Below, in pieces: positions 1 to 17,597 of a stretch of DNA of 64,000 bases. The notes beneath the pieces were generated by a model, which had not been told where the DNA came from, did no database searches, and saw only the letters and a program-made list of their open reading frames with translations. Position numbers and translations under genes: made by a program. Source of the stretch: Macrostomum lignano (Eukaryota). Within the stretch, counting starts at the first letter, position 1. Each line of letters opens with the position of its first letter. The stretch lies in the NCBI GenBank assembly GCA_002269645.1, contig NIVC01002235.1, positions 1 through 64,000 on the forward strand, in the 5' to 3' direction.

Positions 1-319
1 TAATACTTAGGAGCTTGGCTGCGCATTGCCACCATGTCTTCAAGCTTTTACCTTGGGAAGAGGAGTACCTCTGTTCCTTCAAAAGATTTCTCATTGAAGT
101 GGTACTGAAGCGTAGACGGGTTTCACGCAATTTGGAGACATCGCCACTAATAGTGACTAGCAGTAGCTTTGCTTCTACCACTCAGGCCACGGGATAACCT
201 TGAAGTTCATTGATGGCAGTGTAGCTCACGCCGTATACCTCCCAGTAGTAAATATTGGGTGGTGAAGCTTGTTAATCCTTTTTGAACATCTAACAATCCT
301 CCTTCAAATACTAATTGGT

Positions 320-348
320 CGAGACCTTCGTCGCATGCGTCGCATGAT
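320..348 (-). repeat. Double-hairpin mini-element
   Basis: Minus strand AT-CATGCgacGCATG-CGACgaagGTCtCG; second arm imperfect. Confidence 0.7.
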
Positions 349-403
349 TGCTCATTTTTATAGCCTTAAAAAACATGATAGCACCAATTGTTTTGCAAAT
401 TCT

Positions 404-891
404 TCAATTGTTGTTAACAAATTTAGTTTTATTATCAATAGCAGCTAAGTATCTTTTATTTGTCCAATGTTCAGACTTTTTCATATGATCTTCGTCTTTG
501 TAATTAAATGAAGAAGCAGGAATAAAATGATCAATATGTAAAGCACCACCATAGTCTTTTGGAACATAATAATGTTTTGTGAAATTTAACCAATCAATAA
601 AGAATTCAATTGAGCAACCAAGGTAATCAATAGTATGATTATTTTTTGAGCATTATTTGATTTTAATAGTTGATTTATTCTATTTCGTGAGGTGATAATA
701 AGTTTGTAATTTTCATCAGTGTGATATTTATTTTTTATATATTCTTTATTGTTTTTATTCCAAAGTTTTGATATAACTTTCTCACAAGATCGACAATCAT
801 TTCTAAATTTTTTTGAATCATTTCTCCATCTAAAAAAATCTTTAGTCATTGTTTCTCTCTTTACATCGACTACAAATCTTTTAGTTTCCAT
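404..891 (-). CDS. HNH (beta-beta-alpha-Me) endonuclease of the giant-virus type, one frameshift near 640
   Basis: ORF 586..915 (FRNDCRSCEK) continues in another frame as TIDYLGCSIEFFIDWLNF...LHIDHFIPASSF...EHWTNKRYLAAIDNKTK, with stop at 404-406. The LGCS..HIDH..P..HWTN pattern matches NCLDV HNH proteins. ATG at 891 is preceded by TATAAA. Confidence 0.7.
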
Positions 892-920
892 TTTATAAAA
901 AAATAAATTTAACAATTAAT

Positions 921-1578
921 TAAACACCAGTATGTCCAGCAGCTTTCGCAGCAGCTAAAACAAGTTTTCGGGTTTTAAATCCTTCTCCAACAGCTGGTTT
1001 GTTATTTATAGAAATTAAATATCCTTTTATACAAGCTGGTATTTTTAGCAGCTCCTCCTAACTCATCATAAAAAATTTTTGCACTTACTAATTCATCCCT
1101 AGTATATAAATCAGGGTTAAATTTTACCCTAGGGTTCATAAAATATTATATGCTCCACCCAATTCTGTATATAGTTCATTTCGATTTTTATCAACTCCAC
1201 AATTCGATAATTATTATTACCTAAATCTGTAACAGCAATACTAGGTGGTACTCTTGATATTGTTCATCAACTCCATCCTTCTCTGCAGCCCTAATCTCTA
1301 ATCTCAATTGCTTGATCAACACATAAGCAGGCGGCTCATCCCAAAATTTCATCCTCTTTTGGCTCAGTATTTTTAGCAATTTTTTCCAGAAGATCTTTAT
1401 CTGTTTTTTCTAGTTCACTAATTTTCCCAGTAATAGGATTAACAAAAGGAGCAGCAAATCTTTCACCAGCTAATTGTATTCCTAACTTTCTTTTTTGTAA
1501 ATTTCTAACAAAATCAGAATATCTTTGCTTCTCTTTATAAATCGCTAACTCTCCATCAACGTCCATAAATTGACTCAT
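921..1578 (-). CDS. Polinton conserved protein (PZ-like), frameshifted at least twice
   Basis: ORF 1336..1578 continues in shifted frames to ...PAVGEGFKTRKLVLAAAKAAGHTGV*. This resembles the LL.ASK.AGNTG C-terminal motif of a conserved Polinton protein. Confidence 0.4.
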
Positions 1579-1611
1579 TTTTTAACATAAAAAACTTTTT
1601 TAACTTAAAAA

Positions 1612-3078
1612 ATGGCTGAAACAAAAACTATGTGGAGTGATAAATTTCATTTCAAAAAGCACCGACAGTATATTAATGAGGTCAGAGCAAGAGATTTAAA
1701 TTATACCCTACCAACAAGTGATAATTCAAATAACTTTACTACTGGAACGGTAACTTTTGACATCGGCGCAACCAACACTATATTGGATATGAAAAATGCA
1801 TTTTTCCGTGTTAGATGGTTGTATACTAGAAATGATGGAACTGCTCTTGCAGCCGGAGATATCGCAGATCGATCCGGAATAATAATAGAAAATGATTGGT
1901 TTTATAAATGTTTTTCCCAAGCTCAACTAACTGTTAATGGTGCTGAGGTTGAGACATCATCAAACCCCGCAGAGATTAATGGAGTTTTGAAACATTTAAA
2001 TTATACTTATTTATCAAAACAAGTTGGTGATAATGTTGGGTGGATGCCGGATAAAGGTAACGGTCAAGCAGTAGTTTTCCCTAATGTACAAAACGCAGCT
2101 GGTGCAGATACTGCAGCTCTAATTGTTTACCTTAATACAAATAGTTCCAGTTGTAACCACTATGACTAATACAAAAGATATTAACACGGTTTTATAGATC
2201 GTCAGAATAAATTCCCAGTCGCGGTTTTAACCACAGCAACAGCATATGAGCAGGACTTTTCAATCTTTCCACTATTTGGGTTTTTCTCACCAAATCGGGT
2301 ATGGAAAGGATTAAAATTTGGGATACAGTTGCAAATATCTGGTGGATATCAGCCTAGGATACTTTATGGAACCTCAATTTCAACCGATATAGCAGTTCGT
2401 ATAGATTCAATTCAATTAGTCGTACCAACTATTGAGGTAACAGCCCCACTTTTAAAACACATCGATAATCAGTTAACGCATGATCAGGAAATATTTTATT
2501 TGAATCGTCGACATTTTATGCGAACCATTAATAATAACAGGATTCATTCCAGTGGCAAATACTGACATCAAAACGTCGGGTGAGATATATTTTTGTTTGG
2601 TTTAAGATAACAAATAGAAGGAGTAAAAGAGCAAATGGGGATTTATATTGGCTTCAATCCGGTGCCATAGCAGAACAAGCAGCCACCGCAACAGACAATG
2701 CGGCTGCAGCTATTAACGAGTTTAATGTTCAGAATATCCGCCTGCAGGTTGATGATCAATATTATCCGGTTAAAGACCCCTAAATTAAATATAGCAAATA
2801 ATGATGTTAATGATTTTATAAAATATTATCAAGATTATGCCAAAAATGAAGCATATGCCGTCCCTCAGTACACACCCACAGAGTTTCTAAACATTCATCC
2901 AGTGGTTGTTTATGATCTAACGGCACAGAAAGAAAACGTAGCCAATATTGGACTTAATTATATGTTAGAGATTAATAAAACCGGTAATCAGGCACTTGAC
3001 GCCCACGTATTGTTTCTAGAGGAATATATGTCAATTGCTAAAGCTGATGGCACGATTGTTCGGGACGCGCCACTTTAG
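1612..3078 (+). CDS. Major capsid protein (double jelly-roll), split by ~4-5 indels
   Basis: Fragments 1612..2169, ~2185..2565, 2580..2783 and 2698..3078 join. Motifs FSQAQLTVNGAEVETSSNP, N.GFIDRQ, FPLFGFF, RYIFVWF, NVQNIRLQVDDQYYP and PVVVYDLTAQKE match Polinton MCPs. Confidence 0.88.
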
Positions 3079-3127
3079 TGTCGCAGTGCAAAGCACGTCG
3101 CAGCGTGCAGGTCTCCGACGTCGCGCC
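3061..3127 (+). repeat. Composite GC-rich hairpin cluster at the MCP stop
   Basis: CGCCAC-ttta-GTGTCG, GTGC-aaa-GCAC (the 12-mer GTGCAAAGCACG is identical to 9310-9321) and CGTCG...CGACG. Confidence 0.6.
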
Positions 3128-3149
3128 TATTTAAATTATTTCTTTAAAA

Positions 3150-3911
3150 ATGGTAAAGGCAAAACACGATAAGATATTTCCAAATGATCCTTTTCTTTGT
3201 TTAGTAATCGGGGATCAGGTAAAGGAAAAACACACTTTGTTTACGATTTATTAACAACAGATGGAATGTTAGACTATAATAATTTAATAATTTATACTAA
3301 AAACCTAGAATAAAATATTATGAATTTCTTAAACATGGATTAAAAAACAAATTAAAAAAAGATGTCTTGTTTAGAATGTTAAGAGCATATGAGCAATATG
3401 AGGATGATGACGAACCGCGATTTACACTCGATGACATTGAGGATTTATGTAAAACAATGGCACAACAGCCAGAAAACATCACCGAACGAGCCCCAACTGT
3501 TAGAGTATCAACCCGATTAGCCTATGATCAAATTCCAAAACATGATAAAACACTAATTATTTTTGATGATTGTATTAATGACGGTGATCAAGAATTGCAA
3601 AAGGAAATTTTTGTTAGTGGTAGAGGAGATGGAATTGGAGCTTTTTATCTAACACAGTCCTTTAGAGAATTAGAATCGATTATAAAAAAGAATGCAAGTT
3701 GTTGTGTAATGTTTGATTTAGATAATTATGATTTACAAAATATACACGCTAGATTTAATCCTGGTTGGATGCAAAACCATTTAAAAGTATGTGTAAAAAA
3801 ATTTGGGATGATAGCCAATACAAACATATTTATATCAATCCGAGGTTAGAAAGGAAAAATCGAATCTTAAAAGATCTTATAAAAGAAGACGATGAGGAAG
3901 AAGAGACATAA
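3150..3911 (+). CDS. A32/FtsK-like packaging ATPase, frameshifted
   Basis: MVKAKHDKIFPNDPFLCLVIG(G)SGKGKT gives Walker A after restoring one G in the run at ~3210. Walker B is LIIFDDC. The GRGDGIGAFYLTQSF...IIKKNAS segment is A32-type. Probable acidic C-terminus EDDEEEET* near 3911. Confidence 0.88.
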
Positions 3912-3925
3912 TTCCCACTATAAAA

Positions 3926-4711
3926 ATGACTACAAATTTAGATACTATAAAACAATTGGTAGATCGAACTAATTCAAAATTTAGTACAACATTACAGTTT
4001 ATAATGACAACCAGCGAGCAACGGATTCAATTGCGCGATCCATTACAACTTGATCAAAGCCTAAGTTATCAAATAGGTTTAATACTATTTTCGGTTTTCA
4101 ACATGCCTCAATTAATTAATGCAACAAATAATCAATTTAGATATTCTAAAGATTCCGGAGCCAATTGGACAACATTTAGCGTTAACCCAGGAGCGTATAG
4201 CTATACTGATTTGAATGCTTATATAGAAGGAGAATTAACATCTAACGGCGATTGGGTAGCAGGCGCAATTGTTATAGGTGTTGATTTACCATCTGGCAGA
4301 TTCACACTATCACTAGGATCCGGATATCAGGTTGATTTCACAATTGCAAATTCACTCAGAACCATACTTGGATTTAATTCCCGAATAGTTACCACATCAA
4401 GCACCGGTGATACAGTTGGAAATATAGAGGGTGGAGTAAATACAATTAATATAACAACCGACATTTCAAACGGTGGTTATATAACAGATAATAACGGAGT
4501 TTTGGTTCAACGTGGAATTATTTATTCAATCCCATTTCTTGCTGTTCCAATTGGAGAGAAAATGATTGTATCACCTCAAACCCCAATATATTACCCATTA
4601 AATCAATATAATGTTCAATCAATTTATATTAGGATTGTAGATGAAAGCGATAGATTAATAAGTTTTGGTGGGCAGTCAATAACAATAATTTTACGTATAA
4701 AACAGGTTTAA
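3926..4711 (+). CDS. Minor capsid protein (penton, single jelly-roll), intact
   Basis: 261 aa with NNQFRY, PGAYSYTDLNAYI, SLRTILGF and PIYYPL...IYIRIVDESDRLISFGG. This is the typical Polinton penton pattern. Confidence 0.88.
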   Translation: MTTNLDTIKQLVDRTNSKFSTTLQFIMTTSEQRIQLRDPLQLDQSLSYQIGLILFSVFNMPQLINATNNQFRYSKDSGANWTTFSVNPGAYSYTDLNAYIEGELTSNGDWVAGAIVIGVDLPSGRFTLSLGSGYQVDFTIANSLRTILGFNSRIVTTSSTGDTVGNIEGGVNTINITTDISNGGYITDNNGVLVQRGIIYSIPFLAVPIGEKMIVSPQTPIYYPLNQYNVQSIYIRIVDESDRLISFGGQSITIILRIKQV

Positions 4712-4736
4712 TCGTTCGAAACGCGGACTTTGTCCG
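4711..4736 (+). repeat. Double-hairpin mini-element
   Basis: AT-CGTTcgaAACG-CGGACtttGTCCG directly after the penton stop. Confidence 0.85.
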
Positions 4737-4751
4737 TTTCCTATAGTAAAA

Positions 4752-4931
4752 ATGGGTAATAATAATAATAATTTACTAAAAAAACAATCAGAAAAAGTTA
4801 AAAAAGCTGAAGATAATTACGAACTAGAACTAGCAAAATTAAGGCAGTTACAAGCTGATAAAATAAGAAAGGAATTGTTAAAACCCACACCTACTAAACT
4901 AACTAAAACCAAGAGTTTTTCAGGAACATAA
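4752..4931 (+). CDS. Small hypothetical coiled-coil protein (59 aa, MGNNNNNLLKKQ...)
   Basis: Fills the penton-protease gap and is preceded by TAAAAATG like neighbouring genes. No family recognised. Confidence 0.4.
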   Translation: MGNNNNNLLKKQSEKVKKAEDNYELELAKLRQLQADKIRKELLKPTPTKLTKTKSFSGT

Positions 4932-4932
4932 A

Positions 4933-5341
4933 ATGACCATGACGTGGGATGATTTTAAACAAAGATATGGAACGGACACAACAAGCAATATCGAATTAAC
5001 AAATTGGGCGGCAGTTAAAAATAAAACCATTTAGATGTGTTATGCGGGATGAGATAAAAGACTTACCACAATATGGATCTTTCATTGTTAATATTGAAAC
5101 AACAAAAGAAAATGGTGTTCATTGGTCAGCAGTTTATTCAAAACCAAAACTTGTTTATTTTTTTGATTCATACGCGCTTCCTCCGTTACAGGAAATAAAA
5201 GATAAATTTAATCATACTAAAAATCGTTTATGTGGAGATTATCACGAACAATTTCAAACATTTGATAAAAGTTATTGCGGGCAAGCGGCGTTGTATTTTT
5301 ATATATTAATAACTCGAAGAAACCCGAAGTATTTAAGATGA
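4933..5341 (+). CDS. Adenain-like cysteine maturation protease, frameshifted near 5010
   Basis: TSNIELTNWA / LKIKPFRCVMRDE...NGVHWSAVY...YFFDSYALPP...QFQTFDKSYCG. The His, Asp, Gln and Cys catalytic set is present. Confidence 0.88.
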
Positions 5342-5370
5342 TCATGCAAAGCATGCGTGCCGATCACGAT
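5341..5370 (+). repeat. Double-hairpin mini-element
   Basis: AT-CATGCaaaGCATG-CGTGccgatCACG-AT at the protease stop. Confidence 0.85.
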
Positions 5371-5409
5371 CGACGATGATTTTAGACTCTATAAAATAGA
5401 CAGTAAAAA

Positions 5410-7453
5410 ATGTTATTTTCTGGAACACCCTCATGGAACGGAACATCAAGTACTGGTGGTGGTACTTCTGGTGGAATAAGTGTTACATTCGGAGATAACC
5501 GATATATTAATGAAGATGAAGGTTATAAAAAAAGTGAAGTTGATACTAAACTAAATTTAAAAAGAAATGTTGCAGATTCCTATACCAAAACTCAAATAGA
5601 TAATTCCCTAAATTTAAAACGGAACGTAGCCGATTCATATACAAAAACAGAGGTTGACAATGGGTTAAATTTAAAAAGAGATATAACTGATTCTTATTCT
5701 CGAACTCAAATAGATGATTCATTAAATTTAAAACGCAATACGGCCGATTCTTATACCAAAACTGAAGTTGATAATTCCCTAAATTTAAAACGGAATGTTG
5801 CTGATTCCTATACCAAAACTGAAGTTGATAATTCCCTAAATTTAAAAAGAGATATAACTGATTCCTATACCAAAACCGAAGTTGATAATTCCCTAAATTT
5901 AAAAAGAGATATAACTGATTCTTATAGCAAAACTGAAGTTGATAATTCCTTAAATTTAAAAAGAGATATAACTGATTCCTATACCAAAACGGAGGTTGAT
6001 AATTTAGTTGGGGTGGAGCCCAAAACAAGATCGATTCCAAACGGTTGAAACTGGTCACATACCTACCATGGCAGATTGGAGTGGAAATGGTTTTGCAATA
6101 ACCGCAAGCACTGCATTTAATACAACTGATTTTGCAAGTTGGAAAGCGTTTGATGGAAATGATTCAACAGATTGGGCAACAAATAATACTCAAACCGATT
6201 ATTGGATTCAAGTCCAATGCCCTTCCGCAATAATGTGTTATAAAATTGATTTACGTGGTAGGCCATCACCTTCAACCGAGCACCCAGCATCATGGCGATT
6301 TGAGGGAAGTAATGACAATACAAGTTGGGACGTATTAATACCTGCGGATAGTTCTGTAGCAATAAATAACTCAACTCAAACAATTAATGTCACACAAAAT
6401 TTTGATAAAACATATTCATATTTCAGATTGTTCTGTCTTACATCAACCTCGGGTTCAACCAACCCGGGTCTGTCAACCTTCCAGATTTATAGACAGACGT
6501 TTACAATTCTTGATTTAAATTTGGGAGTGGTTAATCAATCAATTGATATGGGAGGTAATACAATTACTAATATCTCTACTATAAACAATAACAGTTCTGT
6601 TGTTACTAAAGGTTATGTTGATACGCGAGTAACACAAACGGCGGATGGCCGAATGTCTTTTAACGATAAAATAAAATTGGATGGAATACCTGCAATCGAT
6701 GCCGCTTTGTACGAGCCTGTAATTTGCAATTGGACTGGATATCAAAACCCAACCACAGCCGGTGATATTTTTCCAACTGGAAGTTTTGTTGGTAGCGCTA
6801 CTTATATTGATTATCAAAATGGAGCTAGAATTACTGATGAAGCAAGTGGTCAGTCTGGAGCGTTGCAATTTAATTTCACCCATTTTCGTAATATCTCCGC
6901 CTCCTTCTATTTCCGAGTTGCTAATGCTACAGGAAGTGGTGCTGATGCGGTTTGGTTTTATGCATATTGTCACGAACGTCCAACAAGTGAATTTGGATCC
7001 GGGTTAACAACCCGCGCCGGCTTGATTGTGTTTGCGAGTGAATGGCATGATAGAGTTGGGGTTGTTTGGAGCAATATAAAATCAGACGGTGCAACAGCTC
7101 GTAATGATGTTCTTAATGACGCAGATCAAACTATAACCTATGCTAATATTGATAACGGCGATTGGCATCTTTTTGAAATTAATATTTTAAATCAAAGAGT
7201 TTGGTATCAAATAAGCACATACAATGTATCAGCTAATACATATACGCTAATTGGGCAAAACTTTTTTACATATGATAGTGGAACTTGGGGAGATTTAGAT
7301 AAAACGGGAACTCTTATGGGTTTTGGTGCTCGAACTGGAGGAGCAGATGCCGCACATTTTATTCGTGGTGCAGCCGTTTGTGGTAGCACATCAGCAGGAT
7401 ATGATTTTGCTGCGACCGCATATTTGGAACGGCCACAAACCGAAATCGCCTAA
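5410..7453 (+). CDS. Fiber/receptor-binding protein: 19-aa repeats, F5/8-C discoidin domain, L-type lectin-like domain; one frameshift at ~6010
   Basis: Eight-plus YTKTEVDNSLNLKRDITDS repeats. WKAFDG..TDW..YWIQ..SWRFEGSND..W indicates discoidin. IDMGGNTITNI..VTKGYVD is a shaft motif. SGALQF..GADAVWF..DNGDWH..GFGARTGG..HFI indicates a ConA/legume-lectin fold. Confidence 0.75.
5524..6003 (+). repeat. 57-bp coding tandem repeat (~8.4 copies)
   Basis: Unit tataccaaaactgaagttgataattccctaaatttaaaaagagatataactgattcc, spaced exactly 57 nt (5524 to 5980 = 8 units). Confidence 0.95.
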
Positions 7454-7487
7454 GGCTAAAGCCTAAGTCGCGAACCAAAGGTTCGAT
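7445..7487 (+). repeat. Double-hairpin mini-element
   Basis: AT-CGCCTAAGGCTaaAGCCTAAGTCG (9/11 paired)-CGAACCaaaGGTTCG-AT spanning the fiber stop. Confidence 0.8.
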
Positions 7488-7509
7488 ACCTTAAATATTT
7501 CTATATAAA

Positions 7510-7833
7510 ATGGCTTTTAGTAGAACTCCATCGATGCGGCAAAATAATGTTATTATTCCTATTCCTAAACAAGAATCAAATATAAAAACATTCAAATCTC
7601 ATACCAAATTTTTATTTAGTACTGTAAATGTTCAGGATAATAAGAAACTTCAAGAATTAATTAAATTATTAAAAAATCATATTATACTTCAAGAGTTTTG
7701 GAAAATAGGATTTAAATGGGAGAAAAAAGAAAGAATCTCCAATACAATACCTATTAAGCTCGGGCAAATACCCAAAGAGCGTGGGGAATTCATTTTGGTG
7801 CTATTAAAAATAGACGAGAATGTCGGTATCTGA
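7510..7833 (+). CDS. Hypothetical viral protein
   Basis: 107-aa ORF with CTATATAAAATG start context, inside the viral gene cluster. Confidence 0.55.
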   Translation: MAFSRTPSMRQNNVIIPIPKQESNIKTFKSHTKFLFSTVNVQDNKKLQELIKLLKNHIILQEFWKIGFKWEKKERISNTIPIKLGQIPKERGEFILVLLKIDENVGI

Positions 7834-8430
7834 AGCAGATAAATGGGAACGCGACCGGTTCAACCAACGTAAAGGTCAGATGTTAAGTAATGTTGATCGA
7901 ATAAATTATGATTATGATTTATATGCTAAAAAAGTAAGAAGAGTTTCAAACCATATAAGAAATATGGATTTTTCAATATTGGATTTGGAAGCTTATCAAT
8001 GTTATGTGTAATCGTTTTAGGTATTTTACAATCTATTCCAACTCTTAATTTATCTCAATTATTTTTAGGTATTTCAATTGGCTCAATATCAGGTTTTGAA
8101 TTGATCAGGAACTTATCAATACTTTTAGCAATTAAATTATATCTTAAAAAAAGAAAGGAAAAATATAAATCTTTAAGAGATGTTGCAAAACAATATAAAA
8201 ATCAATTATATTTATATGTGCAAAAAATATTGGATGATGGAGAGATAACGATTCATGAATTATCAACCGCGGTTGAATTATATGAAAAATATTTAAAAGA
8301 TAGAAATAGAATTTTGGATGTTGAAACTTTTACCGATATGGAATTGAAGGAATTGCGTTTGGACAAACCCAAAGCTCCACCTATAGATACATTAGGTATT
8401 TACGAACCTGAAACTATTGGTAGAACTTAA
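7820..8430 (+). CDS. Conserved Polinton two-TM membrane protein (DGEI motif), one frameshift at ~8005
   Basis: 7820..8011 and 7999..8430 join. A basic helix is followed by two hydrophobic segments and KILDDGEITIHELSTAVELYEKY, resembling the KAL.DGEIS.EEF..I..E.EKY motif of Polinton/adintovirus membrane proteins. Confidence 0.65.
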
Positions 8431-8920
8431 TGTTGTTTAGTTTTTCTAATGCATATGTTATATATTCTTCCCAAAGTGGTAACTCTCTTCTGATCCTAGG
8501 TTTAAATTTTTTATCAATACATAAAAATTCCAATGACTTTTTCAATAACATTTCGTTAGGTATGTTGCCTATCCTTATAAACTTTGTATTCTCTCGTATA
8601 AGAAAATTGAAATAATATCCAACTAAAATTAAAATCCTTTCGGCGTCTTTCGAACTTAATCCCTTTCCTTTATTTAAATGGAAAAAGTTATTATATAAAT
8701 AAACATTATTTCCCGGAATTAAAATTGGATTGGAAATGTCTCTTGTAAGATTTCTTAAAATTGTGTTTTTAAAATAGTAATATGAGTTTTCAATCTTTTT
8801 TGTTTTTTCAAATTGATATATTTTAGAACATGAATAACACATATGATATATATCTCCGCTTGCTGTTTGAGCTCTGTGCATAGTCACGTTACATTTATTA
8901 CATTCGTAAATGTCTTTCAT
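8414..8920 (-). CDS. Hypothetical protein with N-terminal CxxC-CxxC zinc ribbon
   Basis: YECNKCN...HMCYSCSK; 168-aa open ORF. Confidence 0.55.
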   Translation of the reverse strand: MKDIYECNKCNVTMHRAQTASGDIYHMCYSCSKIYQFEKTKKIENSYYYFKNTILRNLTRDISNPILIPGNNVYLYNNFFHLNKGKGLSSKDAERILILVGYYFNFLIRENTKFIRIGNIPNEMLLKKSLEFLCIDKKFKPRIRRELPLWEEYITYALEKLNNIKFYQ

Positions 8921-8946
8921 TTTTTTGTTATTTTTTTAGATTAAAA

Positions 8947-9276
8947 ATGGAGAGCTGGTTCAAAACCGATTCTAATGTGATTAATTATCTCACACCCAAT
9001 ATGTTGGAGAATAAAGAATATAATATTATATGTTTGAGGCAGGTTAAATTTATTGGACTTCAATCGATATTTATACAATTGGATGGGAATAAAATTTTAT
9101 GTCTAAGTGGGAATGATGTTAAAAATTTTCCAGTTTTAGTTATTAATAAACCAAAAGCGTTTGTTATGAAATACAGTATGGAGGGTGGGTTGCAATTTAA
9201 ACTAAAACAAGCAAAAAATAAAAAGAGTGATAGGACTGTAAAATTGGCTTCGGTTTGGGAGGATGACTCCGAATAA
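8947..9276 (+). CDS. Hypothetical protein, possible OB-fold/SSB-like
   Basis: Beta-rich 109 aa with an acidic tail WEDDSE and TAAAAATG start context. The fold assignment is inference. Confidence 0.5.
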   Translation: MESWFKTDSNVINYLTPNMLENKEYNIICLRQVKFIGLQSIFIQLDGNKILCLSGNDVKNFPVLVINKPKAFVMKYSMEGGLQFKLKQAKNKKSDRTVKLASVWEDDSE

Positions 9277-9297
9277 GTTTAAATTTTTTATAAGAAA

Positions 9298-9705
9298 ATG
9301 GAGACAATCGTGCAAAGCACGCGTATCGATGATACGATAAAAATCCTTATCACTAAAGAGCGCGAACTTAATGATATTAATAAAAAAATAAATAATATGT
9401 TTTATAGTGATTATGGTGATCGAACGAAGTTCGCGTATTTATACGATGATATGTTTCCTATCCGATACGACTTGGATAAAAGAAAACGTTTTATACAAAA
9501 AGCAATTAATTATGCTGAAATAGTAATTGAAATTGAAATTGATCGTCTTGTTAGAAAAATAAAAAAACTTAGGAAAAAAATAAAGGAATGTTTAAGTTAC
9601 CCTGCCGACTGTGAGGATAATTGGTGCTCAATAATATATGAAATTGAAGTTAATGATTTGCTCAAACAATTACATGCTTTAGTTTTTTACAGACCCGATA
9701 AGTAA
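9298..9705 (+). CDS. Hypothetical protein carrying two in-frame double-hairpin inserts
   Basis: 135-aa ORF convergent with and overlapping the PolB stop. Confidence 0.5.
   Translation: METIVQSTRIDDTIKILITKERELNDINKKINNMFYSDYGDRTKFAYLYDDMFPIRYDLDKRKRFIQKAINYAEIVIEIEIDRLVRKIKKLRKKIKECLSYPADCEDNWCSIIYEIEVNDLLKQLHALVFYRPDK
9307..9338 (+). repeat. Double-hairpin mini-element (in frame)
   Basis: AT-CGTGCaaaGCACG-CGTATCgatGATACG-AT. Confidence 0.9.
9419..9447 (+). repeat. Double-hairpin mini-element (in frame)
   Basis: AT-CGAACgaaGTTCG-CGTATttATACG-AT. Confidence 0.88.
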
Positions 9706-12700
9706 TTTTTCTGTTAATCTCTTCCAGTTATCCAAGACTTTTTCCTTGTTTAATTTTTTAAGTTCTTTTGGAAATGTTGCATAATAATTATCTATATCTT
9801 TTTCATATTCTAGAAATGTATTATATTCACAATCACATTCGGATTCGCAATCACAATCGTAATAATAATTATTTATTGCCTCTTTGTATTCATTATATTT
9901 GCTTATTATATCTTCTTTTTGTTTTTTATCTTTTATCATATTTTTTATCTCTTCTTTTAAACCATATGGATATGTTTTAATTTTATCATCTAAATATCTT
10001 TTATCATCAAATGGACTTAATGTTTTTTTATCTGTCTCGATGACAAACATCTGATGCTTATCTGAATTTAATCGATATTGTGGAGCATGATAATTTTCAA
10101 TTGTATTAAGGTAATCTAAAAGTACGTTTTTATAATCATCAAATGTTATCTTTTTAACTGCTGCCCTTGATACCCCTTTTATTTTTTTTACCTCTCCCTC
10201 CTGTCCTAAAACTTTAAATGCATAGCATTTTGATCTTATTGCTATAAACTCGGTTATGATTTTGCTATTTAATTCATCTTTCATTTTAAGTACAACTTTT
10301 TTATTTTGATCTGATTTTAAAGGATGGTTATCCGGATAGTCGGAGGTATCCAGTGTATCCTTAATTTTTTCCATATCTTTATAGACATCGAACCTTTGGT
10401 TCGCGGGCTTTGCACGATCATCTGTTTCAATCTTAAATACCAAACTGTCGGTGTCTGCATATATTGGATAGTTATCTGGCCATGTTTTATTTATAACATC
10501 ATAATAATATTCATACATTACTAGCTTTGCATAATCTAAAACAACCATTCCAATAAATATTGGTTTAAGAAATTTTGTTGTTTTATTTCTCATATGAATA
10601 CCCATAAAGTTATCATCAAATTTTATAAAGTCTTTAAAGTTAGGTTTTGAGAAATATTTCTTTGCTTTATCAATATCCTTTTCTAAATGGAATTGGGTTC
10701 TATCTCTAATATTTTCAACCGTTTTTCCATAAAAAGCATTATTCATTAATTTCCAATAATCTTTCTCAAAATTTGTTTTTGACATCTGTCTCTGATTTGA
10801 ATTAAAGTCAATATATTTAGCTAACCAATCTTCCTCAATAAACGATATTGTTCGATGTACTTTAGACACTTTTAATCCCTGCTTTTCATAAAATTGTAGA
10901 AGCTTATAATGCACTACATAGTTTTTCTTATCATGTAAATTTAATATTAATTTTTTTGTTGCTAGATGTTTTGCATTATCTGCTTTAAGATAATCTTTTT
11001 GTGTTTGTGATAAATCATCTTCATTAACTGAACAATGCTCTGGAGCTAAAGGATATTTATATGTTTTTGCTTTTGCTTCTCGAGTATATTGCAAATCCAC
11101 TTCTACGATACAACCCCTTCCTTCGGGAATATTTTTGTAATAATCGGGGTCATCTTCCCATTGGAAATCAGCTATTGGTAATTTTTGTTTCATACAACCA
11201 CCGTATAAATTGTTTGCATCTAGATATAATACATATGATGATTTTTCTTTTTTATTATAATTTGGTAGATATTTATTATTTACTTTAGTATATCTATCTC
11301 CTAGTACACCCGAGAATCCGCCGCGAATTCCTCTCTCAATCATTAACAACATATCATGATCAGTTAGTAAATCAATCTTAACATCTGTATGTTTCAAACC
11401 ACAAGCCCATGTTAATCCCGGTGCACTGAAACAATATGCGGGATCAATTTTAAAATTCTCATATGTATGATTCATAAAGTTTTCAAATGCATCAGCTAAT
11501 AGGAGAACATCTGCTTTAAGATATAGATTATGATAATCTTTAAATGTTTTACAATTAAAGTATTTCCATACTTTTTGAGCGTGTTCATAATCCGATTCAC
11601 TTATATTTGTTTGTGATAATGTTGAATAAAACTTTTCTATGGGTGGTAATTCGGTATGAAAAAATACGTCTTCAGATGTTACATATTCATATGGATAGAT
11701 GCCCTTACGAGTTAATAGCATTAGTTCTTCCTCGGATAGTTTTTCCTTTTTGAAACGATTCAATAGTATTGGAAAGTTTTTCTTTACTATTTCTAAATCC
11801 CACGGTTTTGGAACAAGTGATGAAACAACATTTGCTAAAGATGTTGATAAGAATCTCAAGGAATCTAGAAAAACTAGATGGGAGTATTTCTTACCATATG
11901 TTATTGATATGTAATTTTCTGATGTTTTAGGTAATATATTTATTTCATATTCATCCTTTCCTAAATGAAGCAATTCTCGAACTAGGAAATGAAAATCATA
12001 TCCGGATCCATTATGAAAAAATACTGGTATTTCCTTACATCCTTTTCCTTCTTTTGCATTACATGATCTACATGCTGCCCTCGATAAATTCCCGTTAGAT
12101 GACAATGTTCTCGTATCTTATTTTTCTTACTTAAATATCTTTTGCACATAAAACAATTTGTTGCATTTTTATAATTGTTTCTATCCTTATCTGTCATAAT
12201 AATATTTTTTGATAATTTATCATATTGATTTTGAATATATTCAAATACATTTACTAATGATTCTGCCATGTGCTTAGCTGCATCATTACCGTGGTAAGTA
12301 ATCATCCTTGATTTAAATATATGATCAGCTACAGAGTGTACATATATACAATAACTATTCGGAAACTGTTGTGCCAATTTTTTTGTGCATTCACCATCAG
12401 ATACTGTTTGTGGTTCTTTTAAGGGAACATTTGTTGCTTCAAAATCAGCATATATTACTATTGGTTTTTTAACTGCCATATAATGTTGTTGGAACATTAG
12501 GGTTGCATCTTCATAAGCTGGCATTATAGCATTAGTAAATTTGTGATCTAAACAAAATCGTTGGTGGTTTTTAAGAGCTGTTTCATCCTTTTTAAATGTG
12601 AAACAATTTCTACATAGTGGATATCTATTTTTATTTTCTTCTAAAAATGAACTAATGTCCTTTATGTATATATAATGTGTTTCATTTTCACGCTGTATGT

Positions 12701-13640
12701 ACAAAAGGTCGATTTGATCTGGTGCTGTTATATCAGTTGCTGGCTTAACAAGATAACACCTTTTCTTATACCATTCTGGATCGGTTAAAATTTCTTCTAG
12801 ATCTTCTGGTTCTTCAATTGTAAACACATTAATATTTAAACCATTCATTTTTTCAATCTTATATATATCATCTATTGCTACTGGGTATGATATGTTTTTC
12901 ATTATTATTTCATCCTCATATTGTCTATAATTATATATTTTATTAATGTGTGATTCTACTTGATTGTGATATTTATGAATTAATAAACACCATAATAAAC
13001 ATTTATTATCTTTATTGTCTGGATTTATAATCATATGTGATTTAAATTTGAGCTTCATATGTGATCGTCCTTTAAGAATTTCTATAGGTGCAATCTTTAC
13101 TATTGCTGAATTACAGGATACAAATATAAACCCAGATCCGTTTTCTGTCATCTTATCTATCCATTCATCAAACTCAGCTTCTATTTGATCGAATTGATTG
13201 TTGTAATTTCCCATTGATAATAATGTTTTATATGATTCTTGTGAAAAGTTATTTATTACTTCAATTTCTGAATTTGCATTAAGAATATTTGGTTTTTTAA
13301 ATTCTGTTTCAACTTCTATTTTATACTTAATTGGCTGTCGTTTGTTATTTGACCTTATAGTGTAATTGTTTAATATGGTCTTTAATTTATCTTTCATTTG
13401 TTTAAAATATTCTTTATAATTTGTATTTATATCTATATCTATATATATTACTTCAGCTCCATTTTGTCCTTGTGGTTGGGAGTTATCAATATCATTTAAT
13501 TGTCTTTCTAAACGTATCTCATTTTCTGCCCTAACTCTAGCTTCTATTTCAGCCCTATCGGCAATTCGTTGTGCTTCGATTTGAGCTATTAATTGTGCTC
13601 TAAGTTCCGGGTTGTCGATTTGAGCTAAAATTGCTTCCAT
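9679..13640 (-). CDS. polB: Protein-primed family B DNA polymerase (~1320 aa), one frameshift at ~12078
   Basis: Adding one G joins EHCHLTGIYRG to AACRSCN (endonuclease-VII-like Zn module). Exo motifs: IYADFEA, HNGSGYDFHF, YLKADV. Pol motifs: YLDANNLYG, KLMNNAFYGK, YADTDS, KGV. Confidence 0.95.
10387..10418 (-). repeat. Double-hairpin mini-element (in frame in polB)
   Basis: Minus strand AT-CGTGCaaaGCCCG-CGAACCaaaGGTTCG-AT. The second hairpin is identical to 7471-7485. Confidence 0.9.
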
Positions 13641-13724
13641 TTTATAGAATAAAATTTATATAATGTTTGAATTATTGATTTTTTAATTTTGTGTTTTTGG
13701 TGTCCAGACCCTCCCCCCAGGAGC

Positions 13725-14747
13725 CTATTCGAGATCTGCTTTTGGTAATAGCAATCCATTGCCCATAACGTTTGAATTTAAGAAAATTCCTGAACCTGCT
13801 TTTGGTCGCATTTCGAGATATAATCCGCTTCCGTCGTGTTTTTCAATGATATTAAAATCTTTTCCTAATTTATTAAAAATTTTCTGAACAGCTGGTCTAA
13901 AATTGGATCCAATATTGTCAAAAAATCCTTTAGCTTTCTCACCCGTTTTTTCTAAAGTTTGGCCAAATTCATGTAGTTTATCTGCGACAACTCCGCTTCC
14001 TTGGGTTGTTCCTTGTAAAAGTAAACCATTGCCATGATTTGATCCTTTTAGTATTAACCCTTTTCCAGCTGATAACCTAGCTTCTGCATTTCTTTTTTGC
14101 TCAGCTGTTGCTGAACTACTATTAATTGTATCGATAAGTTTTTGTTTAAATTGTGCGTCCTGCGTTATTTGCTGTCTTTGAAATTCGGCCTCTCTTTTAG
14201 CTTTTTCGTCCGCAGCTTTTTTGTCATTTACTGCTTTTGCAATTCCAGCTGCTCCGCCAGCAACTCCTCCAGCTGCTCCAATTCCTGCAAAAATTATTGG
14301 GAGCAAAGCTGCAAGGGGCAAGATTCCCCCCTGTTTCGCTCTTAACTCTCCTAGCTGTTTTACATTATCATGAATTCTTTTTCCGGCTAAACCGACTGCT
14401 CCAGCTGCGCCAAGTCCTAAAAGAAGCGGTAGAATGGGTAGTAATCCGCCGTCCTTTTTAGTGTGAGTCTCCATTAAAAATTTCACATCGGAGTCTGTCA
14501 ACCTATAATTTCTGCCGCGATTCTTAAAGGATATTGGCCTTCCTTCTTGTGCATATTTTGCTGCGAGTTTAAATGTATCGATGTCGTAGTCAAACTTTTT
14601 ACCTAATCGATCCAATCTTTTTAACATTGTGTGGGTTTGCTTATTATCATCAAGATTTAAGGTATCTACAATTTCTCCTATAAAATATAGCCGTTTTTCG
14701 TCCCGAAGGGACGCGGGCATAGCCCGATCATCATTAACTGAGTCCAT
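13725..14747 (-). CDS. pX/core-like polyprotein with duplicated GG|(I/L)LP hydrophobic segment and repeated GxG|LxL motifs
   Basis: KDGGLLPILPLLLGLGAAGAVG and KQGGILPLAALLPIIFAGIGAAGGVAG resemble the adenovirus pre-mu (pX) C-terminus GGILPLLIPLIAAAIGAVPG. Repeated motifs: GKGLIL, GNGLLL, GSGLYL, GSGIFL, GNGLLL. Confidence 0.65.
   Translation of the reverse strand: MDSVNDDRAMPASLRDEKRLYFIGEIVDTLNLDDNKQTHTMLKRLDRLGKKFDYDIDTFKLAAKYAQEGRPISFKNRGRNYRLTDSDVKFLMETHTKKDGGLLPILPLLLGLGAAGAVGLAGKRIHDNVKQLGELRAKQGGILPLAALLPIIFAGIGAAGGVAGGAAGIAKAVNDKKAADEKAKREAEFQRQQITQDAQFKQKLIDTINSSSATAEQKRNAEARLSAGKGLILKGSNHGNGLLLQGTTQGSGVVADKLHEFGQTLEKTGEKAKGFFDNIGSNFRPAVQKIFNKLGKDFNIIEKHDGSGLYLEMRPKAGSGIFLNSNVMGNGLLLPKADLE
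14697..14728 (-). repeat. Double-hairpin mini-element (in frame)
   Basis: Minus strand AT-CGGGCtatGCCCG-CGTCCCttcGGGACG-AA. Confidence 0.9.
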
Positions 14748-14757
14748 TTTTATATTG

Positions 14758-15156
14758 TTAAAATTTCTTTAATCCTTTTCCACCTTTAATTGTGGTTAAC
14801 ATTTTATTAAAATCCTGAATATCTTTATTACTTATTGGTGTGCTTTTCGTGGGGGTTTCTGTTGGTTGTGCGGCTTGTGCCAGCTTTAAATCTTTTATTG
14901 CATTGATTTGTGAGAGGGTGTCGTTAAAATCCCTCAATTTCTTTAGTTCTTCTGCTGCTCTAGCTGCTTCAATTCCTCCTTTTACAGCATTTGTTATAGA
15001 ACCTGCTGCGGAGCCTGCTTGCCCTATAAGACCCATATTGTCTTTAACAAAATTCGCTGCTGTTCCAACCACATCAAAAAGACCCTCACCTCGATATTCA
15101 ACTGGGTCTCCTACCTGCAATTCGTTCAGATTTTGCATATGAGTAACGTGTGTCAT
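14758..15156 (-). CDS. Putative pVI-like membrane-active virion protein
   Basis: Likely start at 15156 (AAAAAATG). RGEG|LFDVVGTAANFVKDNMGLIGQAG is a putative cleavage site followed by an amphipathic helix. C-terminal GGKGLKKF. Confidence 0.5.
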   Translation of the reverse strand: MTHVTHMQNLNELQVGDPVEYRGEGLFDVVGTAANFVKDNMGLIGQAGSAAGSITNAVKGGIEAARAAEELKKLRDFNDTLSQINAIKDLKLAQAAQPTETPTKSTPISNKDIQDFNKMLTTIKGGKGLKKF

Positions 15157-15267
15157 TTTTTGTTCTATTTTTAGTAACAGAAAAAAGAGACGAAGTGGAA
15201 GCACAATAGGTTGGGGTAGAATAATAGAACAGTGGGTAGTATAAGAAAAAGAGACGATTTATAACTT

Positions 15268-15405
15268 ATGAATGAAACTCTCGCTACCATATATGGTATT
15301 ATGCCTCCTCTTCATGAATGGGCTAGTATGAAGTTTCATACTACAGAAAAAGACCCTTCGCGCCTGTGGCGCGTGCGACGGGTTATAGAGAATTGGAAGT
15401 GTTAG
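15268..15405 (+). CDS. Possible 45-aa subterminal ORF
   Basis: MNETLATIYGIMPPLHEWASMKFHTTEKDPSRLWRVRRVIENWKC*. Short, with no family recognised. Confidence 0.2.
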   Translation: MNETLATIYGIMPPLHEWASMKFHTTEKDPSRLWRVRRVIENWKC

Positions 15406-15431
15406 AAGTGTTGGGGAGTGTTGGGATGTGT

Positions 15432-15696
15432 AGTAGTGGAGAAAAAGACGAGTACAGATCAGACCTTTTTTAATGGCCGTTTATAAGGTTCTAGAGGGGG
15501 GACACGAGGGGAGTGTTGGGGAGTGTTTGGAAGTGTTGGGAATGATTTTTATTGTTAGGGGGTTTTTAGATGTCTTTTTGTGTTAATGGTGATTAGATGT
15601 GTTTTTTTTATTTACCCCCCGTGTCCCCCCTCTAGACCCTTAAAACGGTCATTAAAAAAGTGCTCTGGGTCTGTACTCGTCTTTTTCTCCACTACT
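15432..15696. repeat. Terminal self-inverted repeat: ~80-bp arms 15432-15511 and 15615-15696
   Basis: Both arms start AGTAGTGGAGAAAAAGACGAGTACAGA (27 nt identical) and continue with imperfect match through TCTAGAGGGGGGACAC. Confidence 0.92.
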
Positions 15697-16150
15697 TGGC
15701 GCCTTGATGCTAAATCTGGCGCCTTGATGCTAGATCTGGCGCCTCGATACTAAATCTGGCGACTCGATACTAGATCTGGCGCCTCGATACTAGATCTGGC
15801 GCCTCGATACTAGATCTGGCGCCTCGATACTAGATCTAGCGTCTAGATTCTAGATTTAGCGCCTCGATACTAGATCTGGCGCCTCGATACTAGATCTGGC
15901 GCCTTGATGCTAGATCTGGCGCCTCGATACTAAATCTGGCGCCTCGATACTAGATCTGGCGCCTCGATACTAGATCTGGCGCCTCGATACTAGATCTGGC
16001 GCCTCAAAACTAGATCTAGCGTCTTGATGCTAGATCTGGTGCCTCGATACTAGATCCAGTGCCTCGATTTTGGGTCTGGCGCTCTGATGCTAAATTACGT
16101 GTAAACTAGTACCGGTACTAGGTCTGGCGGTCTGAAGCTAGAGCTTGCGC
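15697..16150. repeat. 20-bp satellite (TGGCGCCTCGATACTAGATC)n
   Basis: About 20 tandem copies, degenerating rightwards. Confidence 0.95.
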
Positions 16151-16262: not shown

Positions 16263-17597
16263 ATGAGCCCATCGTTGGACACGGCAACCACGGCAGCAAC
16301 AACAGCCGATTGGGCATGGAAACGCAACTTCTACGAGCTGGTGTTCAACTATCTTCCTCCGGCACTGTTGGCAATCGGTCTGGCATCGAATATCTGCGCT
16401 TTCCTGGTGCTTATGCGACCTAAGATGCGTTTTCTAGTTGTCCACCTGCCACTACTGGTTCTGTCTGTAGTTGACTCGATCGCTCTGCTCACCGGACTAT
16501 TGCGTCATTGGTTACGGAAAGCGACGTATTTAGTAGCTGTGGGAGATTTAGATCCTCAAGCTACGTCGCAGACTAGTTGCAAGCTGTTGGAGCTGCTGCT
16601 GTACCTCAGTCTGATGTACTCCTCCTGGCTAGTGACCCTGATCTCTGTTGAACGCTACGTAACCGTCTGTGTACAGCAGCAGAGTCGTGTTCGAGCTTTC
16701 CTCATCTCCCGCCGGGGACTCTGTTGGACAATGTGTTCAGGATTTATCGCCTTGCTCGGCGTTAATCTGCACTTCTTGGCCACTAGAGGCCTAGTATTGC
16801 CCGGGCCGGATTATAACCAGACGTCCACAACAGAATCAGTCACCGTTGAAGATAAGGTCGTCATTGAAGACGACAAGGATGCCGTCTGTAGAAATCTGGA
16901 CCAGCACGAATTCTTTGTTGAAACAGTGTTCCCGATGTTAGACCTCACCTTGACCGCTTTCGTGCCGTTTCTAGTGATTGCGACTTGCAATATTAAAATA
17001 GTTTGCAAGCTGCGCGACGTTAGAAAGAATTCCGGTCTGAGCGCGAGTCAGAGCGCCTTTGGAGGCTATCGAACTACGGTGATGCTGCTGCTGACTACTT
17101 TTGTATTCATTGCATTAACAGCGCCTGTGAAGATCTACCTAACAGTGATTGGAGGCTCTCAACCCAGCGGATTAGATGCCAAGTCAGATCCCAACCGGTT
17201 CTATTCCCATCGGGTAGTTTGGTCCATCATGATTGCGCTGCAGTTCGCCAATCATTGCTGCAATTTCCTACTTTACTGCGCCAGCAATCCGAAGTTTCGC
17301 AGCGAAGCTGTTGGACTTTTCTCAACTTGCTGCTTCTGCTGCAGCGGCAGGCGTTGCAGTTGCTGCTTTTGCAGACTCAACGACGGTAGCAATTATCGGA
17401 ATCAGCGAGCTCTAAGCTACTTGAGCCCGGATGGCTCCGCTGACGAACAACTGGAGGAGCAGCGTCAGAGACGGCGTCAAGACAGTCTGCAATTCCATGG
17501 ACAAGAATTGTCGGCAACTTACTCTGGGCCAGCTTGTACCAACGACAACGACATGCCAATGCGATCAAGGGCGCCCACTGTTCAGTCTGACCACTAA
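16263..17597 (+). CDS. Intronless rhodopsin-class peptide-type GPCR (FMRFamide-receptor-like)
   Basis: Seven hydrophobic segments, GLASNI in TM1, DSIAL in TM2, SVERY, and NHCCNFLLYC in TM7. Confidence 0.9.
   Translation: MSPSLDTATTAATTADWAWKRNFYELVFNYLPPALLAIGLASNICAFLVLMRPKMRFLVVHLPLLVLSVVDSIALLTGLLRHWLRKATYLVAVGDLDPQATSQTSCKLLELLLYLSLMYSSWLVTLISVERYVTVCVQQQSRVRAFLISRRGLCWTMCSGFIALLGVNLHFLATRGLVLPGPDYNQTSTTESVTVEDKVVIEDDKDAVCRNLDQHEFFVETVFPMLDLTLTAFVPFLVIATCNIKIVCKLRDVRKNSGLSASQSAFGGYRTTVMLLLTTFVFIALTAPVKIYLTVIGGSQPSGLDAKSDPNRFYSHRVVWSIMIALQFANHCCNFLLYCASNPKFRSEAVGLFSTCCFCCSGRRCSCCFCRLNDGSNYRNQRALSYLSPDGSADEQLEEQRQRRRQDSLQFHGQELSATYSGPACTNDNDMPMRSRAPTVQSDH

Follow-up and report, generated by a model that had tools for sequence, protein, structure and literature searches.

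The Polinton at this locus of Macrostomum lignano is AT-rich and contains dispersed GC-rich islands, which raises the question of whether they are signals of the element itself or inserts that move within it. A preliminary description, made from the letters of the DNA, had considered both a mobile mini-insert and a processing signal. The window, i.e. the whole stretch of 64,000 nucleotides that was analysed (contig NIVC01002235.1), contains the Polinton flanked by nuclear genes. This Polinton belongs to a family of elements of 17-18 kb with few genes, of which a single assembly contains 70 or more sister copies. The islands and associated features are the following:

320..348: double-hairpin unit, first hairpin worn in the window copy, within the first few codons of a short ORF on the minus strand
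3061..3127: about two worn units, stacked, at the 3' terminus of the probable major capsid gene
4711..4738: unit located at the stop codon of the probable minor capsid gene
5341..5376: unit and a remnant, within the final codons of the probable protease gene
7445..7487: irregular unit at the end of a fibre-like gene (fold z-score -3.2)
9307..9338: regular unit (13+15) bounded by AT dinucleotides, in frame (+30), located at codon 4 of ORF 9298-9705
9419..9447: short unit, in frame (+27), within ORF 9298-9705
10387..10418: regular unit, in frame (+30), ten codons past the DTDS motif of the polymerase
14697..14728: regular unit, in frame (+27 or +30 depending on the allele), close to the beginning of ORF 13725-14747
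15359..15373: lone subterminal hairpin, excluded from the family on sister comparison and fold
15432..15696: right terminus of the Polinton, which is a long inverted repeat in its own right

Architecture of the double-hairpin unit

A scan for abutting hairpin pairs (positions 1-15700, no AT flanks required) found five perfect and six near-perfect pairs (at most one mismatch), with matches at 4713, 5343, 9309, 9421, 10389 and 14699. In sixty dinucleotide shuffles, the means were 0.017 perfect and 0.32 near-perfect pairs (maxima 1 and 2), far below the observed frequency, which confirms the GC-rich double-hairpin islands of the preliminary description. In the remaining 48.3 kb of the window, the hairpin-pair scan returned two weak matches. 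The strict scan did not recover the islands 320-348 and 7445-7487, owing to one irregular hairpin at each in the window copy; regular units are present at both sites in sister copies. The predicted DNA fold consists of two hairpins at all eight core islands (320, 4711, 5341, 7445, 9307, 9419, 10387 and 14697), with z-scores from -0.3 to -3.8, those at 320, 5341 and 9419 being individually unremarkable by folding energy alone. An assembly artefact was rejected on the basis of sister alleles and of contigs from three independent short-read runs, which span 10387-10418 without a gap.

The unit is composed of two abutting hairpins that begin with C and end with G, mostly of 13 and 15 nt and mostly with AT on both sides, and usually adds a net 30 nt. 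In a collection of units that comprises 18 site clusters and both orientations, the 13+15 layout is found in 144 of 166 units, the same 144 having a fixed length of 28, and AT is present on both sides in 121 of 167 units, as collected by a scanner that awarded a bonus for AT flanks. The AT frame initially proposed is thus common among the units but incomplete at 320, 4711 and 14697. Nine short-stem and eight long-stem classes occur in 25 combinations, which bears out the reuse of whole hairpins in new combinations; the stem covariation pointed out earlier is real, but partly reflects this swapping of whole hairpins and not independent compensatory changes. Furthermore, GNA loops, a type that is stable in DNA, are present in 22 of 46 distinct hairpins (8 of 64 triplets being expected; these hairpins are related by descent and do not represent independent trials), the closing pair is C-G in 44 of 46, and a G-U wobble is impossible for 14 of 17 stem mismatches.

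Empty, single and stacked alleles

Empty alleles are present among sister Polinton copies at all eight core sites, and comparison of orthologous sites revealed copies with none, one or several stacked units; the GC-rich islands are insertions. In brief, (i) at 320..348, 7 of 18 sisters are empty, 8 carry a single unit (+30 to +33) and 3 a double one, (ii) at 4711..4738, 14 sisters include 2 empty, 1 partial and 11 filled with a varying first hairpin, (iii) at 5341..5376, 7 of 14 are empty, 5 single or partial and 2 double, (iv) at 7445..7487, 14 of 29 are empty and 15 filled with many hairpin pairs, (v) 9307..9338 is empty in 36 of 36 sisters, one additional filled copy (L029) being present in the unit collection, (vi) 9419..9447 is empty in 14 of 15, (vii) at 10387..10418, a sample of 35 copies deliberately enriched for empties comprises 12 empty, 22 single and 1 double, and (viii) 14697..14728 is empty in 32 of 32, with related units close by in L068-L070. 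Two further clusters had been described as related. The one at 3061-3127 is related, although as a stack of worn units more than as a partial cluster (among 23 sisters, 2 empty-like with 16-20 nt, 11 with 51-59 nt, 9 with 81-86 nt and 1 other), while 15359-15373, for which two comparable loci gave no empty allele, was removed from the set.

It is very unlikely that the hairpins arose in place by fold-back copying, as immobile structures whose likeness comes from a common mutational process. The last arm at 9307 matches the beginning of a different allele of the gene concerned, and the inserted piece at 3061 repeats the last codons of the gene and its stop. However, identical hairpins recur at sites that are unrelated, as are their flanks (the commonest hairpins in 33, 29, 25 and 20 units), and unit length is fixed at 28 in most units. 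Fold-back copying is thereby largely refuted as a general origin and may still shape single arms.

At least about a dozen further sites, beyond the eight core ones, are polymorphic for units among sisters, and those within genes differ by +27, +30, +33, +60 or +63 among the matches listed. The following are empty in the window copy:

45..57: upstream of the integrase, filled in sisters
3485..3490: within the ATPase gene, +30 unit in frame in sisters (18 units)
3895..3920: at the end of the ATPase gene, stacks of 1-4 units in sisters (23 units, 11 of them distinct)
12386..12394: within the polymerase gene, +33 or +63 in sisters

A site of the 45..57 type is also filled in an integrase family that is 65-70% divergent. 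Units are gained at new sites, and they stack head to tail with a common AT. Comparison of filled and empty alleles revealed a clean AT flank at 9307, 4760, 9635 and 12773; at several sites (about 55, 924 and 3485) the empty alleles have no AT, and the AT pair may therefore not be a simple duplication of the target in every case.

Selection for a function of the Polinton, such as transcript end, priming or packaging, could also account for such units, as cis-signals comparable to giant-virus intergenic hairpins. Many sites are located at gene starts or ends (320, 924, 3061, 3898, 4711, 5341, 7445, 9307 and 14697), and C-GNA-G mini-hairpins are known at phage and plasmid priming sites (PMC13037366). 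This explanation is unlikely, and the processing signal envisaged initially is not supported: no core site is fixed (9307 and 14697 are empty in all the sisters compared), units occur in either orientation and also inside the ATPase and polymerase genes, and gene ends are also the least harmful places for inserts.

Inside genes, only frame-keeping lengths are found, at termini or in loops, and therefore the extra 9-11 residues appear to be translated and tolerated. The in-frame units are read in several frames and on both strands, with no conserved peptide. In the polymerase, the inserts fall in loops according to structure prediction, the loop at 12386..12394 having a pLDDT below 50. The insert at 10387..10418 is absent from 89 of 89 homologous polymerases that matched the motif, and this comparison supports the empty state as ancestral. 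None of the private insertions of 57 homologous polymerases resembles a double-hairpin unit, which is a weak test. A processing enzyme might recognise a fixed structure whose sequence varies, and units could in principle be removed or skipped at the RNA level, as non-canonical introns or ribosome bypass elements. This is extremely unlikely, since the lengths within genes are multiples of three, the frames are open, and the polymerase unit is kept gap-free in contigs of three short-read runs presumed to be RNA.

On neither flank tree do the filled copies at 10387..10418 group as a single clade; L048 and L059 have the unit yet show empty-type letters from 66 nt away. At one site, units pass from one sister lineage to another together with short flanking tracts, and hairpin halves swap between units. 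The presence of a unit on an otherwise empty-type haplotype, together with swapped halves, indicates that units also spread by short gene conversion. This homoplasy at one site shows recombination among copies, not drive favouring the unit. It implies an exchange of DNA among these Polinton copies in very short tracts, probably during joint replication outside the chromosome.

Apparent confinement to Polintons and possible mode of movement

The empty, single and stacked alleles, the frame-keeping lengths, the reuse of hairpins and the ancestral empty polymerase all speak for the mobile mini-insert of the preliminary description, and the units are probably a non-coding selfish family that parasitises this Polinton family. 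Pattern searches of the genome gave 87 and 166 matches against 0 for reversed controls. All 38 matches inspected, out of at least 250, are located in Polinton-type DNA, the patterns having been taken from Polinton variants.

Pattern scans of viral contigs gave no match, with patterns that fit this family only and say little about analogues; two matches in metagenome contigs were discarded as unpaired chance matches, both in one GC-rich bacterial gene. Single-protein scans of viral contigs found no relatives, and alignment gave 30 distant viral relative loci (28-42% identity). No dispersed units were detected in these 30 loci by a sequence-free scan of low sensitivity (only 2-12 matches in five Polinton stretches of the host genome): 22 loci had no match, six had one, one had two overlapping matches, and L114 had six, all in one tandem repeat.

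Movement by way of an RNA copy and a host reverse transcriptase has been suggested for Allomyces elements and yeast GC42 (PMC2800124, PMC4478555), and the unit-bearing region is present in short-read runs presumed to be RNA. This route is very improbable here: none of the 38 sampled genome matches lies in host DNA, the three-base loops, the GNA loops and the lack of wobble pairs fit DNA, and no reverse transcriptase was found among the ORFs scanned. A miniature Polinton derivative moved by the integrase, for which Polinton-like ends and a 5-6 bp duplication are expected, was also rejected; the units end in C..G with 2-nt AT flanks, and the Polinton ends differ.

Two genes of the element are candidate helpers:

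352..891, minus strand: free-standing endonuclease VII/HNH-like gene, in two frames in the window copy
9679..13640, minus strand: gene of a protein-primed family B polymerase that includes an endonuclease VII domain, in two frames in the window copy

The sister ORF of the former in L014 matches the phrog_1035 endonuclease VII (E 5.5e-11), and this free nuclease has one weak relative among 37 candidates and also viral look-alikes. The endonuclease VII domain of the polymerase (PF02945, E 2e-6) was identified on the sister ORF in L058. Copies whose nuclease or polymerase differs also carry units; therefore no helper gene could be tied to the units. Neither a HUH/Rep nor a RAYT gene was found among the ORFs scanned with Pfam and PHROG, several small ORFs being without assignment.

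Polinton replication is believed to proceed by protein-primed strand displacement, which is established for this polymerase class. The mini-insert would act as folded single-stranded DNA: strand-displacement replication would expose single strands of the Polinton, and the double hairpin would stall or release the polymerase. For the enzyme step of copying, we infer, with slightly better than even confidence, that the polymerase would then copy the unit into another molecule or site through 2-4 nt of microhomology around AT. Less probably, an element-encoded endonuclease VII/HNH domain could cut the branched fold and repair could copy the unit; other routes are rather unlikely. The polymerase or nuclease route would confine units to Polinton DNA. 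A more far-reaching proposal, which is tentative and rather doubtful as a whole, is that of a structure-defined transposon of about 30 bases with no conserved inner sequence, a single-stranded double mini-hairpin read by the Polinton polymerase or endonuclease VII domain and copied preferentially, in a homing-like drive, into empty sites and from one Polinton family to others.

Relation to known hairpin elements and significance

REP/BIME elements and AAV ITRs are short DNA hairpins, paired or T-shaped, that are thought to be read as structure. The AAV ITRs, to which a likeness was proposed earlier, are not the closest kind: the units have no long basal stem and are internal and optional, and no HUH/Rep gene was found among the ORFs scanned. 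As for a REP/RPE-like mini-insert, the mobility stands, but REP is not the closest kind and no RAYT gene was found among these ORFs. By analogy, the closest known kinds appear to be yeast GC clusters and the double-hairpin elements (DHEs) of fungal mitochondria, reportedly described by Paquin et al. 2000.

DHEs occur in fungal mitochondria (Allomyces, fission yeasts) (PMC10085805, PMC4618339, PMC2800124). Compared by description, they share with the Polinton units a small size, GC-richness, two adjacent stem-loops, an AT-rich genome, a non-coding nature and the patchy presence at orthologous sites that was also found here. They differ in being mitochondrial, whereas the Polinton units reside in a nuclear virus-like element of an animal; in being intergenic or in rRNA, whereas the latter are often in frame in protein genes; and, for the Allomyces elements, in being said to have no flanking duplications, whereas AT mostly flanks the Polinton units. 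Yeast mitochondrial GC clusters, e.g. GC42, have 2-3 nt flanking direct repeats and, like the Polinton units, are present in some relatives and absent from others, form tandem arrays, merge and shuffle, and are exchanged by recombination in the flanks; their flanks are AG or ACT instead of AT and their sequence is different (PMC4478555), and the Polinton units have a 28-nt core, a strict two-hairpin layout and a Polinton host. Rickettsia palindromic elements are likewise palindromic and in frame in unrelated genes whose proteins tolerate them, but they are bacterial, of about 150 bp and with a conserved peptide, compared with 27-33 nt, several frames and both strands here (PMC10969869). No report of such a hairpin element in a Polinton, Maverick or adintovirus was found in the main text of freely accessible papers, and the preprint of Jeong et al. 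contains no use of "hairpin" or "palindrom".

The present family bears on the mode of movement of 30-40 nt hairpin inserts, a question that dates from the first descriptions of DHEs and GC clusters: the few genes, the 70 or more sister copies and the empty, single and stacked alleles side by side leave few candidate enzymes and make target rules directly readable. This nested parasite adds peptides to viral polymerase, ATPase and capsid-region genes. If the structure-defined transposon proposal is true, no hyperparasite of a eukaryotic DNA virus lineage would be smaller, and no earlier family of this kind would have had its helper narrowed to about 15 genes; the movement of DHEs, GC clusters and similar inserts could then be explained.

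Insertions of paired hairpins

The GC-rich islands of the window are insertions of a unit of about 30 nt that is made of two abutting hairpins. A scan for abutting hairpin pairs (no flanking AT required) finds 5 perfect and 6 near-perfect pairs in the 15.7 kb of the Polinton, where 60 dinucleotide shuffles average 0.017 and 0.32, respectively; in the remaining 48.3 kb of the window it gives 2 weak matches. DNA folding predicts two abutting hairpins at each of the eight core islands, with an unremarkable energy in three, and contigs from three short-read studies cover 10387-10418 without gaps. The feature at 15359-15373, which the preliminary description had grouped with these islands, is a single hairpin, with an empty allele in neither of the 2 loci compared.

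Allele states at the core islands (window positions) in sisters, i.e. other copies of the Polinton family in the genome, read by anchoring on flanks
320: empty in 7/18 sisters
4711: empty in 2/14 sisters
5341: empty in 7/14 sisters
7445: empty in 14/29 sisters
9307: empty in 36/36 sisters
9419: empty in 14/15 sisters
10387: empty in 13/34; not a frequency, some polymerase copies having been picked for looking empty
14697: empty in 32/32 sisters

The ten extra residues of the 10387 insert occur in none of the 89 homologous polymerases (of 120) that matched the surrounding motif, so that the empty state is ancestral there. Conversely, at least the following sites are empty in the window and filled in sisters: ~55, 924, 3485, 3898, 4760, 7860, 8411, 9600, 9636, 9690, 12390 and 12773, with two further such sites, among those listed, in the integrase region. 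Units also stack: two stand together at 320, 5341 and 10387, and alleles at 3898 hold as many as four; at 3061, allele lengths rise in steps (~16-20, 51-59 and 81-86 nt). At the end of the presumed capsid gene (3061-3127), every inserted piece repeats the last codons and the stop, and the protein end is thus kept.

The reading frame is kept as well: net insert lengths within genes are 27, 30, 33, 60 or 63, except in copies where the unit or its vicinity has small indels, and the four 15+15 units (net 32) all lie at gene ends. Filled polymerase genes often have an open frame of more than 1,250 codons. In a structure model of a filled sister polymerase (mean pLDDT 87, 58 sequences), one insert is predicted to fall in a linker (pLDDT <50) and the other in a strand-helix loop past the DTDS motif.

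Transfer between copies

Among 35 copies compared at 10387 (12 empty, 22 single, 1 double; a sample enriched for empties), the filled ones form no single clade on either flank tree. L061, a filled copy, forms a pair with the empty L063 in both trees, and the filled loci L048 and L059 cluster with the empty L042, L044 and L049. Empty-type letters are found in L048 and L059 at 10300-10321 and again from ~10540-10600, and filled-type letters run from 10311 to 10596 in L061. The unit at 10387 therefore moves between lineages on short tracts that measure between tens of bases and a few hundred. That the empty alleles are clean excisions of filled ones is ruled out by the empties' own right-flank letters.

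A second integrase-bearing family, apparently short and of 65-70% identity, is represented by L073, L090, L102, L104 and L106. An identical copy of the unit at ~55 occupies the corresponding position in this second family, inside a ~130-nt stretch of raised identity between the two families; this sharing could reflect conversion or local constraint.

The host Polinton

Most of one Polinton occupies positions 1-15696 of the window, its right end falling at 15696. In this copy, several genes are spread over more than one frame. The genome contains at least 70 polymerase matches and ~25 left-half matches, and 109 stretches were fetched for comparison.

Genes of the Polinton
within 1-15696: A32-type ATPase gene
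within 1-15696: protein-primed polymerase with endonuclease VII domain
just left of the window, as seen in sisters: rve integrase

A Pfam search of the Polinton ORFs gave no capsid and no protease match; the names capsid, protease and fibre are presumptive, assigned from position and characteristic motifs. The fibre-like gene (5410-7453) contains tandem repeats of 57 nt and encodes an F5/8 type C domain, and its middle part differs in some sisters. The nuclease slot beside the integrase (~352-891; L023, L024, L028) holds an endonuclease VII/HNH-like or an Eco47II-like gene. In L032, L034, L035, L036 and L040, another protein-primed polymerase (~990 residues; PF03175, E 3e-16) takes the place of 9691-13635, and L005 and L007 are internally deleted (junction ~721 to ~7969).

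The right end (15432-15696) is a long inverted repeat (~80-bp arms, ~100-nt loop, z -16), a layout that recurs in sisters and at one left end; its 27-nt outer arms are fully complementary, yet their sequence varies from copy to copy. A subterminal 30-bp perfect palindrome (L001 1683-1780, L005 9527-9624) stands in place of ~15190-15350, and its 38-nt loop lies in opposite orientations among copies, as in parvovirus flip and flop. A 20-nt tandem repeat (15697-16150) adjoins the Polinton end, followed by a host intronless rhodopsin-family receptor gene (16263-17597).

Anatomy, movement and relatives of the unit

The scan returned 169 units from 87 loci, 3 of them outside the mapped element or unmapped; the remaining 166 form 18 clusters, and 144 combine a 13-nt with a 15-nt hairpin. 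AT flanks both sides of 121 of 167 mapped units (the scanner score slightly favoured AT), hence the usual net gain of 30; some empty sites lack AT. Units occur in both orientations, and hairpins are swapped between them, nine short-stem and eight long-stem classes giving 25 combinations. In the distinct regular hairpins, the outer pair is C-G (46/46), the inner positions are A-T in some and C-G in others with pairing mostly kept, and position 3 is mismatched in 5/20 and 8/26. The loop is closed by C-G in 44/46; it is all A/T in 15/46 and GNA on one strand in 22/46, versus 8/64 triplets expected. C-GNA-G loops are described, in the part of the source consulted, as exceptionally stable DNA mini-hairpins known from single-strand priming sites (PMC13037366). 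The GNA excess, together with 14 of 17 stem mismatches being incompatible with G-U, hints at a fold at the DNA level; the loop counts are a hint and not a formal test, because hairpins share ancestry.

We infer that the unit moves as single-stranded DNA during Polinton replication. With somewhat better than even likelihood, the polymerase would switch templates at short microhomology centred on AT; less probably, though still plausibly, a nuclease of the element would act and repair would follow. Candidate helpers would be the endonuclease VII domain of the polymerase and the free endonuclease VII-like gene at ~352-891. In some copies an Eco47II-like gene fills this slot (match below the curated cut-off), and units are present in such copies and in those with the different polymerase, which leaves no gene that can be singled out as the helper. 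Polinton polymerases with nuclease domains have been described before (Jeong et al., 10.1101/2023.08.22.554363; PMC11161782), and the portions of these sources consulted contain no link to hairpin inserts.

Within the sample, the units are confined to Polintons: two genome patterns gave 87 and 166 matches (0 in reversed controls), and Polinton-type DNA surrounds all 38 fetched matches (20 + 18), which were picked for unusual sequence or lone position. Pattern scans of public viral and metagenome collections returned nothing real, and no dispersed unit family was found in 30 distant relatives. Near one end of a distant viral relative (L114, ~12560-12700), GC-rich double hairpins are arrayed in tandem.

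As far as the consulted parts of the sources go, the unit's way of working resembles that of mitochondrial DHEs (PMC10085805, PMC4618339, PMC2800124) and yeast GC clusters (PMC4478555), and the kept reading frame resembles that of RPEs; it differs from all three in location, flank or size, and is therefore not filed as a member of any. The intergenic hairpin repeat arrays of Sissivirus, in the consulted part of the preprint, have a different layout. Searches of the openly available literature gave no comparable element in a Polinton. The unit is real and mobile, a variant within a known kind of element, in a new host context.
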